Sequence record: MZ868638.1
DNA: 64,000 bases
Source: Escherichia phage vB_EcoM-pEK20
Direction: 5' to 3' (one strand)
The notes below the pieces were generated by a model. The model made no database searches. It worked only from the letters and a program-made list of their open reading frames with translations, and had not been told where the DNA came from. This document shows, one piece after another, positions 12,611 through 63,292 of this stretch; position 1 is the first letter of the stretch, and each line of letters begins with the position of its first letter. The position numbers were made by a program, and so were the translations under genes.

Positions 12611-12845
12611 AGACATCAAAGGCTACAAGCCGCATACCGATGATAAAATCGGTAAAGTGAACGCTATTAAAGATGCCGAAGTTCGTTTAGGACTTATTCT
12701 AGACGCCCTGGCAGAAGAAGCATTATCAGCAAATACTCCTGAAGCTCTGACGGCTTTGTCCCAATTGAACTGTGCTAAAGAACGCCTAAAGGAAGCTAGT
12801 ATGTGGGCTTGTCGTGCGGTATTTCAACCAGAGGAAAAATACTAA
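12600..12845 (+). CDS. hypothetical protein
   Basis: ATG at M57 of listed ORF 12432; SD gagg; upstream part overlaps the previous gene in another frame. Confidence 0.4.
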
Positions 12846-13144
12846 TGGCTCAAATCCTATCAGGCTTTGGAACTCATTATGAAGCATCTCGACGCATAAC
12901 TGAAAGCAATCCTTTTGGCCTTGTTCCGAAGCACAAGAAAATTCAAAGCCTTGATGACTTTGAGAATCGCCTATGGGCCCTCTTTAATGAGTACAAGGCA
13001 TATCTGAAAGAAGACGCTGACGATTGTCTTGAAGAAGATGAGATTGCGTATTACGAACAACGCCTTGAACAGCTCAAGAACTTCCACCAGGTTCGTGACG
13101 AAGTATCTAAAGCAGTTAAAAAGTTAATTCCTTTCAAAGAGTAG
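12845..13144 (+). CDS. hypothetical protein
   Basis: ATG overlapping upstream stop (TAATGG). Confidence 0.45.
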
Positions 13145-13172
13145 TTTACTTCTCCTCTAGTTGTGTTACTAT
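13144..13172 (+). promoter_or_regulatory. early promoter in stem-loop, upstream of regB
   Basis: -35 gtttac 13144-13149, -10 tactat 13167-13172; inverted repeat tctcctctagttg / caactagaggaga. Confidence 0.65.
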
Positions 13173-13200
13173 AGACCTGTCAACTAGAGGAGAAATCAAA

Positions 13201-13659
13201 ATGACTATCAATTCAGACGTTTTTATCCGCCGCAATAAACTCCGTCGAATCTTTGAAACGGAGTTCCGCAAAATAAATGCCAGTATAAAAGATGCTGCAA
13301 AGTCTCTTGGACTACCGGGCTTTCATATCAAGTATTCTCAACATCTCTTAGATCGTGCCATCCAGAGAGAAATAGATGAGAATTACGTTTTTGAATTATT
13401 TCATAAAGTAAAAAATCATGTTAAAGAAGTTGCAGAATTTTTATCAATGCCGGCACGTCCAGATGTTGATGAAGATTTTGTCGAAGGTGTCGAATATCGC
13501 CCAGGCCGTTTAGAAATAACTGATGGAAATCTTTGGTTAGGACTTACAGTTTGTCGCGAAAATCCAGCATTCAAAATGAAGACTCTTCAATGCAGAATGG
13601 CTATTATTAACAATAAACGACTACCAGGAAAAGCTTCTAAAGCAGTGATTAAAATCTAG
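13201..13659 (+). CDS. regB: RegB site-specific endoribonuclease
   Basis: MTINSDVFIRRNKLRR...YSQHLLDRAIQREIDE...LQCRMAIINNKRLPGKASKAVIK matches T4 RegB. Confidence 0.9.
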   Translation: MTINSDVFIRRNKLRRIFETEFRKINASIKDAAKSLGLPGFHIKYSQHLLDRAIQREIDENYVFELFHKVKNHVKEVAEFLSMPARPDVDEDFVEGVEYRPGRLEITDGNLWLGLTVCRENPAFKMKTLQCRMAIINNKRLPGKASKAVIKI

Positions 13660-13667
13660 AGGTAAAC

Positions 13668-14210
13668 ATGAGAAAAGCACTACTCGCTGGTCTATTTGCT
13701 CTTTCATTATCAGCACATAGCTCCGAGCATACTTTTAGTAATGTCCAACTCGATAACTTGAATTATGCTTATCAGTTTGGGGAACAGTTTTCTAAGGATG
13801 GAAAATTTAAAACGCATGAAAATATGCATAAGAAAGGACTTGGATACATAATGGCCGCAATACTATGGCAGGAATCATCTGCCGGTATTAATCTTAAAGA
13901 TAAGAAAGGTCACCATGCGTATGGAATGTTCCAAAATTATCTACCAACAATGAGGGCAAGAATTAACCAACTTGGTTATAATATGACTGATGCCCAAATT
14001 AAGAAAATGCTATCTAAGCGGTCTAATTCAGCCAGATGGGCTTATATAGAATTTTCTTATTGGTTAAATATACATAACGGGGATATAAGGAAAGCCTTAT
14101 CCTCATATAATGCGGGATGGAAGACAAGTGCTGGAAGTAAATATGCTTCTGAAGTCCTAGAAAAGGCTAATTACCTTAAATCAAATAAACTACTGGAAAT
14201 AAAAGAATGA
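13668..14210 (+). CDS. secreted lytic-transglycosylase-like protein (signal peptide)
   Basis: N-terminal signal peptide; WQESSAG...GMFQ resembles Slt-domain catalytic motif. Confidence 0.45.
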   Translation: MRKALLAGLFALSLSAHSSEHTFSNVQLDNLNYAYQFGEQFSKDGKFKTHENMHKKGLGYIMAAILWQESSAGINLKDKKGHHAYGMFQNYLPTMRARINQLGYNMTDAQIKKMLSKRSNSARWAYIEFSYWLNIHNGDIRKALSSYNAGWKTSAGSKYASEVLEKANYLKSNKLLEIKE

Positions 14211-14554
14211 CCAAAATGTTGGCTTTAATAGTTGGCTTGGTTTCATTTAACGCTCTTGCTAATACTACATATACTGATGTAACGGAGTATACAAACAGAA
14301 CGGCGTCTGATTATTGTGGTAAAAGTCAAGAGTGTAAAGTAGATTTTTCACAAAAATTGTTATATGCGTATAAAGACGGAGAAAAAGACGGGGCGTCTAG
14401 TAGGTTCAAGGCGTCTACTTTAATTAAAAGATACTATAAAAAATGGCAAATATTAGAATGCTCGGTGGCGGAACCTAAAGATAAGGCGGCATGCAATTCT
14501 ATGGTGGACCGTCTAGTTGACTCTTATACTAGAGGACTTGTAGCAAGTGATTAA
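14207..14554 (+). CDS. small secreted/periplasmic protein
   Basis: signal-peptide-like N-terminus MTKMLALIVGLVSFNALA. Confidence 0.45.
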   Translation: MTKMLALIVGLVSFNALANTTYTDVTEYTNRTASDYCGKSQECKVDFSQKLLYAYKDGEKDGASSRFKASTLIKRYYKKWQILECSVAEPKDKAACNSMVDRLVDSYTRGLVASD

Positions 14555-15014
14555 AAACTATATCAAGGGCGATATTGTCGCCCTGTTTTCTAAAGGTAAT
14601 AATATTGCTCATGGGTGCAATTGTTTTCATACAATGGGCGCCGGTGTAGCAGGTCAATTGGCAAAGGCTTATCCAAAAATTTTAGAAGCCGATAAACTTC
14701 AAACCGAATTCGGAGATGAGTCTAAACTCGGGACTTATTCGGTTTATGAAAAATATTTTAAGACCCATAAAGCTTATTGCTTTAATCTTTATACACAGTT
14801 TGAGCCGGGACCTAATTTTGAGTACTATGCTTTAATGAATTGTATAATAGAATTAAATGAATTCGGAAAAAATAAGATAACAAAGCCTGTAATTTATATG
14901 CCAAGAATTGGTGCAGGTATAGGTGGTGGAAACTGGGATATCATTGAAGAAATTCTTGATACATATTCCACTAAACTAGAAATTGTGATTGTTGATTGGG
15001 AACCATTATTATGA
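14547..15014 (+). CDS. macro-domain protein (ADP-ribose binding/hydrolase family)
   Basis: HGCNCFHTMGAGVAGQL and PRIGAGIGGGNW resemble macro-domain glycine-rich motifs; GTG start, no in-frame ATG near N-terminus. Confidence 0.55.
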   Translation: MIKNYIKGDIVALFSKGNNIAHGCNCFHTMGAGVAGQLAKAYPKILEADKLQTEFGDESKLGTYSVYEKYFKTHKAYCFNLYTQFEPGPNFEYYALMNCIIELNEFGKNKITKPVIYMPRIGAGIGGGNWDIIEEILDTYSTKLEIVIVDWEPLL

Positions 15015-15223
15015 ATGTGCATTACCCACATCCGTTTGATCCTAAAAATAAAGCAGTAATTATTCGTCAATGGGAACGCATTTGTCGTACTAAATGTCCA
15101 ATTAATAGTCCACATGATGTAGATAAAGACTACATCGGAACATTCGTTGAATATACCTTTATTGATAAGAAAGGTCGTAAACAACATGTAGAAGAATATT
15201 GCTTAAAGGTTACATGGTTATGA
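15011..15223 (+). CDS. hypothetical small protein
   Basis: ATG at M6 of listed ORF. Confidence 0.4.
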   Translation: MNVHYPHPFDPKNKAVIIRQWERICRTKCPINSPHDVDKDYIGTFVEYTFIDKKGRKQHVEEYCLKVTWL

Positions 15224-15405
15224 GTTTAAGTAAAGAACAAAAAGACATACTATTTTCTCTTATTCACGAAGTTATGGATAAAAATAGTGAATTGGAAAAA
15301 GTTTGCGATGAATGCGGTCCTTTTAATACCGACGAATACGAAGAACTGTGTAAAGATTTCGACGATAAAGAACAAGAACTTATTGATTATATAAATTCCT
15401 TATGA
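15214..15405 (+). CDS. hypothetical small protein
   Basis: ATG with aaagg 6 nt upstream. Confidence 0.4.
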   Translation: MVMSLSKEQKDILFSLIHEVMDKNSELEKVCDECGPFNTDEYEELCKDFDDKEQELIDYINSL

Positions 15406-15599
15406 TTACTCGCGAACAAAAGAATGAAATACGATTTTTAATCAGCGAAATTATTAGTTTAGAACGAGATTTATCTTTTGAATTGGCTTCGGATTATGGA
15501 GATGCTGAAACATACTACGAATTAGTAAAATCTATCGATAAAGCTGAAAATGATTTAGAAACATATTTAGAAAATTTAACTAAGGACTCTTATGGCTAG
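15402..15599 (+). CDS. hypothetical small acidic protein
   Basis: ATG overlapping upstream stop. Confidence 0.4.
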   Translation: MITREQKNEIRFLISEIISLERDLSFELASDYGDAETYYELVKSIDKAENDLETYLENLTKDSYG

Positions 15600-16173
15600 T
15601 TTAATTTTTACATATGCCGCTATGAACGCTGGTAAGTCTGCTTCATTACTTACTGCCGCTCATAACTATAAAGAACGTGGCATGGGTGTATTAGTTCTTA
15701 AACCGGCTATTGATACTCGCGATTCAAAAGGTGAAATAGTCTCTCGTATTGGTATTCGTCAGGACGCCAATATAATTACAAAAGACATGGATATCTTTGA
15801 ATTCTATAAATGGGCTGCAGCACAAAAGGATATTCATTGTGTATTTGTTGACGAAGCTCAATTCTTAACTACTGAAAAGGTGTATCAACTTAGTCGTATT
15901 GTTGACGTATACAATGTGCCGGTAATGGCATATGGACTACGAACAGATTTTAAAGGTAATCTATTTGAAGGTTCTCAAGCATTAATGGCTATTGCCGATA
16001 AGCTTGTTGAACTTAAAGGTGTCTGTCATTGTGGTAAAAAGACCACAATGGTAGCTAGAGTCACGGAAGACGGACTTCCAATTATAGATGGCAGTCAAAT
16101 TGAAATTGGTGATACTGATAGATATGTGTCATTATGCCGGAAGCATTGGAATGATTTGACAGGGTTGTTATAA
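15592..16173 (+). CDS. tk: thymidine kinase
   Basis: P-loop AAMNAGKS, FVDEAQF, C-terminal CxCG zinc ribbon; matches T4 Tk. Confidence 0.95.
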   Translation: MASLIFTYAAMNAGKSASLLTAAHNYKERGMGVLVLKPAIDTRDSKGEIVSRIGIRQDANIITKDMDIFEFYKWAAAQKDIHCVFVDEAQFLTTEKVYQLSRIVDVYNVPVMAYGLRTDFKGNLFEGSQALMAIADKLVELKGVCHCGKKTTMVARVTEDGLPIIDGSQIEIGDTDRYVSLCRKHWNDLTGLL

Positions 16174-16176
16174 ATA
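16169..16176 (+). promoter_or_regulatory. late promoter core TATAAATA
   Basis: exact TATAAATA upstream of 16201 and rI. Confidence 0.45.
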
Positions 16177-16200
16177 CTAATATCTAACCAAGAGGTATAT

Positions 16201-16413
16201 ATGCAGCAATTAAACGAAAGACAACTTCGTAATCTTACTGTAACCCAATTGGATGAAATCCGAAGAGAATTAGGACATTCTATTTCTCATTTAAACGAGG
16301 ATATCCGTCAAACTGGTTCTAAAGCTGATTATACACGCAAGCGCAAGCTGGAAAAATACCTCACAGATGTTAAGGCCGTCCAAAGGCGAAAAATAAATAC
16401 TGGCCAAAATTAA
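16201..16413 (+). CDS. hypothetical protein
   Basis: ATG ORF, SD agagg. Confidence 0.45.
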
Positions 16414-16425
16414 CAGGAGGCCTAT

Positions 16426-16728
16426 ATGGCCTTAAGAGCGATAGCTGTCATAGCGATGCTGGGGTTTTTTGCAGCAACAACTCCTATCGTTGGTACTGCA
16501 CATATCGACCCATATTTTGATAACTTTATGGAATCAGGGATTAAAAACGTATATACTTTGTTTGAAATTCAAAATGTCGAGAATTCTGAAAAATTCTATA
16601 AGTATATGGCAAAGCATTACAAAAATAGCCCCTGTGATGATGCATTTGAATGTCATGAACAAGGCATAAAAACCGCCAGACAATTTGCCGAGTTCATGAA
16701 AATAAAATTAGAGCCTACATCTATCTAA
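16426..16728 (+). CDS. rI: lysis-inhibition regulator RI (antiholin)
   Basis: signal-anchor N-terminus and DPYFDNFMESGI...FECHEQG resemble T4 RI; adjacent to tk. Confidence 0.75.
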   Translation: MALRAIAVIAMLGFFAATTPIVGTAHIDPYFDNFMESGIKNVYTLFEIQNVENSEKFYKYMAKHYKNSPCDDAFECHEQGIKTARQFAEFMKIKLEPTSI

Positions 16729-16734
16729 TTTACT

Positions 16735-16762
16735 AGCCCCTTCCTTATGGTTGGGGCTTTTT
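16735..16762 (+). terminator. rho-independent terminator
   Basis: agcccc 16735-16740 / ggggct 16753-16758 then T-run. Confidence 0.7.
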
Positions 16763-16773
16763 GGCATTTAGCA

Positions 16774-16802
16774 GTTTACTTCTCCTCAGGTTGTGTTATA
16801 GT
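16774..16802 (+). promoter_or_regulatory. early promoter
   Basis: -35 gtttac 16774-16779, -10 tatagt 16797-16802. Confidence 0.6.
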
Positions 16803-16829
16803 AGTCCTTACTTACTAGAGGAGAACGTT

Positions 16830-17009
16830 ATGACACGTAAAGAAAAAATTTCTAAGTTAATGTTTTTGATTGAAGAGTACGCTAATGCGGTATCTGATTG
16901 GGAAAATGCTCATGGTTGCGAAGATGGAGACATCGACATTAACAGAGCTATGAAAAAGATGGCTGAAGCCCACACCGAATTGCAAATGTATGTTAACGAG
17001 ATTATGTGA
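16830..17009 (+). CDS. hypothetical small protein
   Basis: ATG after SD agaggag; upstream part of listed ORF 16761 is promoter. Confidence 0.35.
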   Translation: MTRKEKISKLMFLIEEYANAVSDWENAHGCEDGDIDINRAMKKMAEAHTELQMYVNEIM

Positions 17010-55174: not shown

Positions 55175-55492
55175 ATGAAAACCATCGATTGTAAAGCAGA
55201 ATTTAAGATTTTTTATCACGGTTCAAGTAGTTCAGCTAACATCGAAAACATGCTTTGTCCTCCTGAGGAAACAGGAGTTCTGTCTGAAACCGGACGTAAG
55301 AAAAACTTGGATCGTGTATTCTTTACTGAAGATATCGGTTTAGCAAAGATTTATGCAGGACGAGCAGCACGCTCTTATGGAGGTGAACCACGTCTCTATC
55401 GAGTAATTTCTCCGGTAGACGTAGTTCAAATGAATAATACTAAAGGTGCTACAGTTTATCACGCTGAATGGGCATTTTGCGAGGAAATATGA
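55175..55492 (+). CDS. hypothetical protein
   Basis: ATG ORF. Confidence 0.5.
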   Translation: MKTIDCKAEFKIFYHGSSSSANIENMLCPPEETGVLSETGRKKNLDRVFFTEDIGLAKIYAGRAARSYGGEPRLYRVISPVDVVQMNNTKGATVYHAEWAFCEEI

Positions 55493-56991: not shown

Positions 56992-57642
56992 ATGATTTAT
57001 TACATGCACAAAAATGCGCCATTTAAATATGGTAAATTTCCTAATGCGCAATGTTATAATATAACGCCGAATGAAAATAATAACGGATATCATATTGGTG
57101 TAATTTTTGTAATTGTTAAAGATAACGAAATCGTTGCCTGGGCAGATTTTAAAGGTACAACATATGATGTTAATCCTGTGCCTTTCACATATTACAATAT
57201 AATGGATTTGGCATATGATTATAATTGGTTTAATCACGACGCGTTGGCTCATATTGAAGGTGTAGGATTTGACATCTCTTATTCTAGCTATTCATTATGT
57301 CCTATGAGCCGAGCTCACGGTAAAGATGCATCATATCTTTCATTTCGGAAACGTGTAAACTTCAAACGTAGTACAGAGTATGTCGGTGGACTCTTTGTTA
57401 AAGATAATAAAATAACCCGTATTAGTTATCCTCTAAGTGTAGGTCAAAAAGATGTTGATGTTGATTTAGACTTAACTGAAAATAACATTAATCATATTGC
57501 TTCTGTATATTTTGATATCGATGAAAAAATTGTAGTGTGTGGATACGAATTACCACCCGAAGAAAAGGCTGAAGCAATTGAAGTCGAATTAGAAATTTCT
57601 GTCGATGACCAAATATTTAATGCATTTATGAATCGAGGTTAA
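56992..57642 (+). CDS. hypothetical protein
   Basis: ATG at M4 of listed GTG ORF. Confidence 0.5.
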   Translation: MIYYMHKNAPFKYGKFPNAQCYNITPNENNNGYHIGVIFVIVKDNEIVAWADFKGTTYDVNPVPFTYYNIMDLAYDYNWFNHDALAHIEGVGFDISYSSYSLCPMSRAHGKDASYLSFRKRVNFKRSTEYVGGLFVKDNKITRISYPLSVGQKDVDVDLDLTENNINHIASVYFDIDEKIVVCGYELPPEEKAEAIEVELEISVDDQIFNAFMNRG

Positions 57643-62044: not shown

Positions 62045-62626
62045 ATGACATGTCAATCTGAACTTCAAGAACGCGAATACCTAACAAATCTGATTGATAG
62101 CAAATTCACCCGCCAAGAACAAAACATTCTCTGGGCCTGCACCGATTCTAAGGAAGACCCGGATTTCCACTATGAATTAGACCATCTTGTTCGTAAGCAT
62201 ATGACTTCTACAGTGCCAGTAGAACTCTACCGTGGTGTAACTCCAGAAGAAGTAGAACGTCTTTCCCTTCTTTCTGTGGGATGCCATTGGTCTCCTGGAC
62301 GAGTAACATCGTTCACAACTGATTTCAGTACAGCTCGTCAATTCTCCGGGAGATGGGAATATCAGACGTACACTATTCTTAGTCTCAGGAATGCTCCATT
62401 CATTTTTGATTACTACCAAAACATGGTTAACATTGTACTTGCCGGAAAGAACCCTAAGCATGTTATGGAAGAAACGCGTGTTGACGTCCTAGATATGATT
62501 GAATCTGAACAAGAATACATGGTCTCAGGTATCTCTAGATTTGAGATTGTGGAAATTGAAGAGTTAGAGTATGACCCTTTGTCTCGAGTATACAAAATCA
62601 TTCACTTAAAGATGTTGAATTTTTAG
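62045..62626 (+). CDS. ADP-ribosyltransferase, ModA/ModB-like
   Basis: R-S-E ART motifs: YRG, SFTTDF, EQEYMVSG; paralog of next gene; position downstream of soc as for T4 modA/modB. Confidence 0.55.
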   Translation: MTCQSELQEREYLTNLIDSKFTRQEQNILWACTDSKEDPDFHYELDHLVRKHMTSTVPVELYRGVTPEEVERLSLLSVGCHWSPGRVTSFTTDFSTARQFSGRWEYQTYTILSLRNAPFIFDYYQNMVNIVLAGKNPKHVMEETRVDVLDMIESEQEYMVSGISRFEIVEIEELEYDPLSRVYKIIHLKMLNF

Positions 62627-62683: not shown

Positions 62684-63292
62684 ATGTTTATGCCGTATAA
62701 CGAGTGTGAAATTGAAGAAATGGTTCGTCGTGCTCAAAACCCCGAATATCAAGATGTATTGCAGTACGAAATTGATAGTCAATTCAGCGACATTGAACAA
62801 AGTGTACTGTGGCAGTGTATGGAAAACAAGCCAGACTGTATTCAACAGGAGTTAAGTTCAATCGTTCGTAGAAATTGGACGTCTTCTGTTCCTGAGACAA
62901 TGTATCGTGGAATCTCTAAGAAAACTATAGCCACACTCGATGATAAAGGTATTGGTAGTATTATTAAATTTGACAGAGTAATGAGCTTCAGCCCAGTGTT
63001 CGGTGTAGCACGTAACTTTGCTTCGTATAATTTTTACGGAACATTTAATATGTTCTGCATCAAAGATGCACCATTTGCTTTCAACTTCCGTGAACATATG
63101 CTTAATATGATTCTGGCTGCACCATCTTGTGAGTTCAATGGAGCTTTCCCTGAAGCGACAAGACGGTCTAATGCTAGACTTATATCTGACGAATGTGAAT
63201 TTATGCTCCCTATAGGGACTACACTGCGTGTAGATTCTATTATTCAAGATGGACGTTATACAATCTGGAATCTGTCTATTGTCAGTTACTGA
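62684..63292 (+). CDS. ADP-ribosyltransferase, ModA/ModB-like
   Basis: R-S-E ART motifs: YRG, SFSPVF, ECEFMLPIG. Confidence 0.55.
   Translation: MFMPYNECEIEEMVRRAQNPEYQDVLQYEIDSQFSDIEQSVLWQCMENKPDCIQQELSSIVRRNWTSSVPETMYRGISKKTIATLDDKGIGSIIKFDRVMSFSPVFGVARNFASYNFYGTFNMFCIKDAPFAFNFREHMLNMILAAPSCEFNGAFPEATRRSNARLISDECEFMLPIGTTLRVDSIIQDGRYTIWNLSIVSY

Follow-up and report, generated by a model that had tools for sequence, protein, structure and literature searches.

What does a macrodomain protein do in a T-even phage, and on which ADP-ribose would it act? The question was raised by an open reading frame (ORF) at positions 14547-15014 in Escherichia phage vB_EcoM-pEK20 (MZ868638.1), of which a stretch of 64,000 nucleotides (hereafter, the window) was analyzed. 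A preliminary description of the window had noted the ORF as a putative reader or eraser of ADP-ribose, encoded in the same genome as two ADP-ribosyl "writers", and had proposed that it could reverse a host defense based on ADP-ribosylation or tune the ADP-ribosylation of host proteins by the phage itself. The answer that we consider likely is that the ORF is the Mosigvirus adfM gene, which encodes a stand-alone macrodomain ADP-ribosyl glycohydrolase countering DarTG2-type systems by de-ADP-ribosylating phage DNA. The counter-defense role was assigned because the protein is 85% identical to the product of T4 tk.4 and the two genes are syntenic. The gene is as follows.

14547..15014 (+): tk.4/adfM ortholog, single-domain macrodomain protein of 155 amino acids; GTG start, TGA stop

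The region from 13000 to 17000 was 97-98% identical in DNA to phages HY126, ZQ3, HX01, and SHSML-52-1, and on this basis the window was assigned to Mosigvirus, as an RB69/HX01-like T-even phage. The gene order regB, vs.1, vs, macro ORF, tk.3, tk.2, tk.1, and tk is that of T4 and HX01, and the T4 equivalent of the macro ORF is tk.4. The encoded protein aligned with T4 Tk.4 (NP_049723) without gaps over 155 of 155 residues, and the genes flanking the ORF were 52-97% identical to their T4 counterparts. On this identity and position, the ORF was established as the ortholog of T4 tk.4, which has been renamed adfM. The gene is already known: copies with 97-98% identity are in GenBank, some of them named "macro domain protein"; annotation of its macro domain goes back years, and the biological role was published in 2025.

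The claim that a macro-domain protein is encoded at this position was borne out. The search with the Macro profile that the preliminary description had proposed (Pfam PF01661) gave 28.0 bits against a gathering cut-off of 22 (E 2.3e-6, profile positions 2-117 of 118), and PHROG 335 was matched at 2e-66. The AlphaFold2 model, built with 67 homologs, had a predicted local distance difference test score (pLDDT) of 95.2 and a predicted template modeling score (pTM) of 0.90. Its structural matches in the Protein Data Bank (PDB) by Foldseek were all macrodomains, with TARG1, Poa1p, DarG, and BT1257 at the top, so that the structure prediction on which the claim could have failed upheld it. The model established a three-layer alpha/beta/alpha macro fold with two glycine-rich ADP-ribose-binding loops. 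The nearest structural neighbors were of the TARG1/DarG/Poa1p type and not of the MacroD, viral Mac1, PARG, or macroH2A types; as judged from the model, the protein is a macrodomain of the ALC1-like (TARG1-DarG-Poa1p) class. The closest solved relative, both by sequence (E 1e-10) and by structure, was BT1257.

DarT2 ADP-ribosylates thymidine in single-stranded DNA, and the DarG macrodomain reverses this modification (PMC13309987). The DarTG2 phenotype of T4 tk.4 was taken from the literature. A preprint (bioRxiv 10.1101/2025.11.20.689424, November 2025) reports that tk.4 was the single significant hit in transposon sequencing of T4 on a DarTG2-expressing host and that a clean tk.4 knockout sensitized T4 to DarTG2; the gene was renamed adfM in the same work. 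The suggestion of an eraser that may reverse an ADP-ribosylation-based host defense is supported by the syntenic relationship to a gene that, by this account, T4 needs against DarTG2. As a consistency check, T5, a DarTG2-sensitive control, was searched for a Tk.4-like macrodomain, and none was found in the first 100 of its 121.7 kb, the rest being late structural genes and a terminal repeat that duplicates the first 10 kb; this agrees with a role of Tk.4 in DarTG2 resistance.

That the window copy has the DarTG2 phenotype of its T4 ortholog, that it protects by enzymatically stripping ADP-ribose from DNA, and how it would do so are inferred; in outline, events would run as follows. The gene would be expressed early. 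Acting on single-stranded phage DNA, host DarT2 would ADP-ribosylate thymidine within TNTC motifs and block replication. The glycine-rich cleft of the enzyme (G31-G36 and I121-G128) would take up the ADP-ribose, and the enzyme would cut the ribose-N3(thymine) bond and restore the template. Q84 would position the water for cleavage, and N25 and H22 would help to hold the distal ribose. The codons of these elements are located as follows.

14610..14621 (+): H22-G23-C24-N25 (HGCN motif)
14637..14654 (+): G31-A-G-V-A-G36, first glycine-rich ADP-ribose/phosphate-binding loop of the macro fold
14796..14798 (+): Q84 (CAG), aligned by hhalign and MAFFT with the catalytic lysines K80 of DarG and K84 of TARG1
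14907..14930 (+): I121-G-A-G-I-G-G-G128, second glycine-rich loop, MPRIGAGIGGGNW aligned with TARG1 MPRIGCGLDRLQW

Conservation was assessed in two sets, comprising 67 phage and metagenome homologs and the 80 best bacterial relatives, the latter retrieved by patterns that did not include Q84. Among the 67 homologs, G23 and N25 of the HGCN motif were invariant, with H22 and C24 conserved in at least 90%; N25 aligned with N23 of PhiKZ AdfM and H22 with H23 of Poa1p. In the first loop, which aligned with MGAG/MGKG of TARG1 and DarG, G33 and A35 were invariant and G31 nearly so. In the second loop, I121, G122, and G124 were invariant, and G126 occupied the position of the TARG1 catalytic D125. Q84 (in LYTQ) aligned with FPTK80 of Thermus aquaticus DarG and LITK84 of human TARG1 (hhalign with the family profile, and MAFFT; the TARG1 sequence used is identical to PDB 2LGR), and it was invariant in both sets (67/67 and 80/80). 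HMMER paired BT1257 with the window protein without gaps near Q84 and misplaced the motif, whereas MAFFT with the family profile paired ANMIGQ of BT1257 with FNLYTQ.

The substitution of the catalytic lysine by Q84, established here, appears to add to the published account of T4 Tk.4, as far as the available part of the preprint goes. In Streptomyces coelicolor SCO6735, Gln85 sits at the position of DarG K80 and TARG1 K84 (PMC9411070). That protein lacks the lysine and efficiently cleaves DarT-made dT-ADPr (ADP-ribosylated thymidine), rescues E. coli from DarT, and becomes inactive upon Q85A mutation; a water-mediated mechanism was proposed for it, and BT1257 was grouped with it (PMC9411070). 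Because the lysine equivalent in the window protein is likewise an invariant glutamine, the protein probably does not share the lysine-based catalysis of DarG and TARG1, and a glutamine-positioned, water-mediated mechanism is likely instead. The glutamine at the catalytic-lysine position places the protein with SCO6735 and BT1257, the equivalence being transitive through DarG/TARG1 and the BT1257 alignment.

Several observations weigh against a DNA-directed glycohydrolase. The support for T4 Tk.4 is genetic, and its authors infer the enzymatic removal of ADP-ribose, which "seems likely" in the wording of the preprint (bioRxiv 10.1101/2025.11.20.689424). Both the catalytic lysine of DarG/TARG1 and the TARG1 D125 (G126 here) are absent. 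A mobile loop in SCO6735, about five residues longer than that of DarG/TARG1 and bearing Lys89 and Lys93/94, was proposed to clamp DNA (PMC9411070); the loop after Q84 of the window protein is short and acidic (FEPGPNFE) and lacks this lysine-bearing extension. From Q84 to Y93, the spacing is eight residues, none of them lysine, compared with the same number in TARG1, approximately 14 in BT1257, and 11 in most bacterial relatives. The window protein as a whole is mildly acidic (isoelectric point (pI) 5.6, net charge -3), whereas the pI is 8.5-9.0 for the T. aquaticus DarG macrodomain fragment, the BT1257 fragment, and full-length TARG1; this point is offset by the active PhiKZ AdfM, which is likewise acidic (pI 5.05). 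Lastly, the nearest solved relatives by sequence are BT1257, which has no assigned function, and the ADP-ribose-1''-phosphatase Poa1p.

The resemblance to Poa1p also lends weak support to a different activity, in which the protein would be a small-molecule hydrolase, either an ADP-ribose-1''-phosphate (Appr1p) phosphatase of the Poa1p type or an O-acetyl-ADP-ribose deacetylase, that disposes of what RNA repair or NAD-consuming reactions leave behind. This idea is the source of the label "A1pp phosphatase" in T4 and PHROGs, and we regard it as improbable. Weak Appr1p phosphatase activity in vitro is common among macrodomains and often non-physiological, which counts against it; Poa1p has Ser where the family has its invariant Gln and Phe152 where the window protein has Gly126. 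It would also leave unexplained why the T4 knockout becomes sensitive to DarTG2 specifically. Protection without hydrolysis, by binding ADP-ribosylated DNA or DarT2 as a sequestering protein or a reader, would fit the missing canonical Lys and Asp, and the catalytically dead SCO6735 Q85A, DarG K80A, and TARG1 K84A do inhibit DarT in vitro by interaction, SCO6735 the most (PMC9411070). The equivalents of Q84 and N25 are needed for catalysis by SCO6735 and PhiKZ AdfM, respectively, and because both residues are invariant across approximately 150 relatives, a conserved enzyme was favored; the window protein also has no DarG-like C-terminal DarT-binding domain. We judge a non-catalytic protector very improbable.

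The remaining alternative concerns the marks made by the phage itself. The two writers noted in the preliminary description are as follows.

62045..62626 (+): Mod-family ADP-ribosyltransferase paralog 1, 193 amino acids; PHROG 832 at 2.7e-38; 38% identity to T4 ModB, no ModA hit; HX01 gp174 "RNA polymerase ADP-ribosylase"
62684..63292 (+): Mod-family ADP-ribosyltransferase paralog 2, 202 amino acids; PHROG 832 at 2.2e-37; 31% identity to T4 ModB and 30% to ModA; HX01 gp175

Both ORFs belong to the Mod family, as PHROG 832 ("RNA polymerase ADP-ribosylase") and the R/S/ExE motifs found by inspection (YRGV..SFTT..EQEYM and YRGI..SFSP..ECEFM) indicated. The ModA/ModB label of the preliminary description did not hold beyond the family level: each ORF resembles ModB more than ModA, the two share only 33% identity, and one-to-one orthology with T4 modA and modB is uncertain in the lineage of this phage.

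The macrodomain could then reverse or limit the marks of Alt, ModA, and ModB on RNA polymerase, S1, EF-Tu, and other host proteins, or trim the RNAylation by ModB. Writers and a macrodomain do occur together in the window genome, and SCO6735, a Gln-type relative, also hydrolyzes protein-linked ADP-ribose (PMC9411070). The residue modified by Alt, ModA, and ModB is, however, arginine (PMC8120803). The macro and Mod genes belong to different transcription units and are separated by 47 kb. Arginine-linked ADP-ribose is removed by ARH-type hydrolases and is outside the known activity of macrodomains. The distribution in the phage collection also speaks against a functional partnership with ModA/ModB, which was set aside: Tk.4-like macrodomains turned up in 2790 phage records, compared with 1078 for Mod-family enzymes (an approximately 2.6-fold difference), so that most carriers have no detectable Mod enzyme. 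The records with a Tk.4-like macrodomain include Felixounavirus, Pseudomonas, Vibrio, Campylobacter, and Kuttervirus-like phages, and macrodomains are the commonest ADP-ribose-processing domain of phages, present in approximately 41% of myoviruses. In the available part of the preprint, T4 tk.4 scored under DarTG2 only. The proposal that the macro protein tunes the ADP-ribosylation by the phage, or matters through its co-occurrence with ModA/ModB, was not upheld, and we consider an eraser of the phage's own marks very improbable.

A captured DarG antitoxin was also considered and ruled out on four grounds. The DarG equivalog profile (NCBIfam NF048014) scored 29.3 bits against a cut-off of 250, with model positions 4-146 of 338 matched, and the PADLOC DarG profile (PDLC02990) scored 31 bits, with positions 4-145 of 329 matched; by both profiles, the C-terminal DarT-binding domain of DarG is absent from the 155-residue protein. 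The catalytic lysine of the DarG FPTK motif (K80 in T. aquaticus and Mycobacterium tuberculosis) is replaced by Q84 of LYTQ. No DarT2 homolog was detected within 4 kb of the 80 best bacterial relatives (0/80) by tblastn with a single query, the DarT2 of P. aeruginosa 505 (best E 0.78), a search that distant DarTs may escape. The window gene itself has no darT beside it, its neighbors being vs and tk.3.

Tk.4-type macrodomains with 35-46% identity occur widely as stand-alone genes in Ruegeria and other Rhodobacterales, Desulfobacter, Verrucomicrobia, Hyphomicrobiaceae, and others (loci L007-L086). Q84 is invariant in these bacterial proteins, and their loop after the Gln is mostly three residues longer than that of the phage protein. 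The neighborhood of one further homolog, from a bacterium or metagenome-assembled genome (P0107), was a short phage-like contig and uninformative.

Two other genes of the window are related to ADP-ribosylation. AdfA (anti-DarT factor A), the ortholog of T4 61.2, is encoded at 56992-57642 (+) (Pfam PF23813 at 4.5e-121, 67% identity to T4 61.2), so that with adfM the window carries two anti-DarT genes. It has His at the position of the His in "INHIAS" of T4; if this is the R164H position described for RB69, the allele is T4-like (active-type) and not the inactive Arg allele of RB69. Between the gene 41 helicase and dmd, an ORF of 105 amino acids at 55175-55492 (+) is absent from T4 at the same spot, is present in 609 phage records, and is conserved to an unusual degree, retaining 63-70% identity even in T4-like phages of Aeromonas and Acinetobacter. 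Its protein had no match in Pfam, NCBIfam, or PADLOC and no sequence match in the PDB. The AlphaFold2 model (pLDDT 83.5) best matched the minimal rifampin ADP-ribosyltransferase (ART) Arr (Foldseek E 0.02, probability 1.0); the next matches were the ARTs PltA and ParT. The residues H15-G16 and Y60 do not vary, FYHGS...VFFTED..KIYA resembles an H-Y-type ART, and the RefSeq entry for the same ORF in HX01 (gp153) is annotated "ADP-ribosyl transferase". This ORF may be a third, uncharacterized ADP-ribosyl writer of the window genome.

The reading frame of the macro gene was established as starting at GTG, as had been noted in the preliminary description. An in-frame TAG (14541-14543) lies two codons 5' of the GTG at 14547, which is the first possible start, and the RefSeq annotation of HX01 uses the same GTG; the homologous codon is ATG in T4, ECO07P1, EcS1, and CC31. 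Other start codons were excluded by this TAG and by the position of the next ATG at codon 30, within the conserved HGCNCFHTMGAG motif, where initiation would remove the first strand and part of HGCN. The ORFs on the minus strand at 14529-14657 and 14894-15187 were set aside as shadows of the strongly conserved plus-strand gene. A putative ribosome-binding site precedes the start.

14532..14536 (+): Shine-Dalgarno-like GAGGA, 10 nucleotides 5' of the GTG, inside the 3' end of vs; read from the sequence, in a run conserved in T4 and HX01

The start overlaps the end of vs by 8 nucleotides, and the TGA shares bases with the start codon of tk.3 (ATGA); such overlaps are as expected for translationally coupled early genes of T-even phages. 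A sigma-70 promoter scan of 12800-16400 found no excess of sites (10, compared with 13.3 expected from shuffled sequence). Upstream lie vs.1 at 13668-14210 (+), whose product has a signal-peptide-like N-terminus and matches SLT lytic transglycosylase below the threshold, and vs, encoding the valyl-tRNA synthetase modifier, at 14207-14554 (+). The 3' end of vs is in a different frame from that of T4 vs owing to a 1-nucleotide indel just before the tk.4 start. The HIDEN-SEQ preprint gives vs as the most depleted gene in minimal medium.

A hairpin at 14566-14584 (+), 20 nucleotides past the start codon, has an 8-bp GC-rich stem (AGGGCGAT-ATT-GTCGCCCT) followed by GUUUUCU and was flagged as terminator-like, with a folding z-score of -2.4. 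It is identical in T4 and ECO07P1 and lost in CC31. EcS1 keeps it through a compensatory synonymous pair (AAG to AAA, CTG to TTG), and the T-G wobble that closes the stem becomes C-G there by a third synonymous substitution (GAT to GAC). The hairpin could be an mRNA structure affecting tk.4 stability, attenuation, or translation.

RB69-group phages, by this analysis, carry the anti-DarTG2 gene defined in T4, with adfA in the same window, which is of use in predicting whether a given therapeutic or model phage will plate on E. coli that carries DarTG2. The remaining interest is mechanistic and lies in a Gln-type, short-loop enzyme that goes by the same name as a Lys-type one. The name AdfM spans two marginally related proteins, the Lys-bearing DarG-type PhiKZ gp104 and the Gln-type T4 Tk.4 and window gene, and this naming point appears to add to the literature. 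Since the name covers both types, mechanistic conclusions and inhibitor or mutant designs should not be transferred between them.

Compared with known macrodomains, yeast Poa1p shares HSCNC with HGCNC (22-26) of the window protein, its H23 being the residue mutated in H23A (PDB 6LFS). It differs by Ser at the Q84 position and by F152 (mutated in F152A, PDB 6LFU), a Phe that is absent at the aligned G126, and its Appr1p phosphatase is linked to tRNA splicing. The K84/D125 dyad of human TARG1/OARD1 corresponds to Q84/G126. SCO6735 (PDB 5E3B) and Bacteroides BT1257 (2FG1/2AFC) are ALC1-like macrodomains with the same Gln; the window loop after it is approximately five residues shorter and without lysines, and the protein is acidic and not basic. 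SCO6735 is a DNA-damage-induced bacterial protein and not a phage counter-defense. The DarG macrodomains of T. aquaticus (5M31/5M3E), M. tuberculosis (5M3I), and T. africanus (7OMU) are approximately 20% identical to the window protein.

PhiKZ gp104 (Cell Rep 2026, PMC13309987) is a stand-alone phage macrodomain with the same name, the same proposed role, and the shared Asn (N23/N25). It removes DarT2-made ADP-ribose from an oligonucleotide in vitro, and N23A reduces this activity (PMC13309987). In contrast to the window protein, it is of the DarG type (E 9e-25 to M. tuberculosis DarG) with the FPTK lysine motif, and the two aligned over 23 residues only (BLASTP E 6e-4). Judged from their sequences, the two AdfM proteins appear to have been recruited independently, each from its own branch of the ALC1-like class. 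A broader proposal, which we rate as unlikely but worth stating, is that T-even AdfM is an independently recruited stand-alone Gln-type macrodomain with a third, lysine-independent flavor of the ALC1-like active site (Gln plus a short acidic TARG1-like loop), perhaps acting on both DNA and protein as SCO6735 does, and perhaps on other ADP-ribosylating host defenses or on non-arginine products of the phage's own transferases.

The closest known system is T4 Tk.4, or AdfM (anti-DarT factor Macrodomain). The carrier phages differ (Mosigvirus here, Tequatrovirus for T4), the DarTG2 phenotype being known for the T4 allele. The window gene starts with GTG and not ATG, it overlaps vs by 8 and not 4 nucleotides, and its protein has 24 substitutions, including G127 in place of K127 in the second glycine loop. 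The two genes have in common the length of 155 amino acids, the position between vs and tk.3, and the overlap-coupled arrangement, and their proteins share all conserved residues: H22, N25, D49, N80, Y82, T83, Q84, the IGAG loop, and W130.
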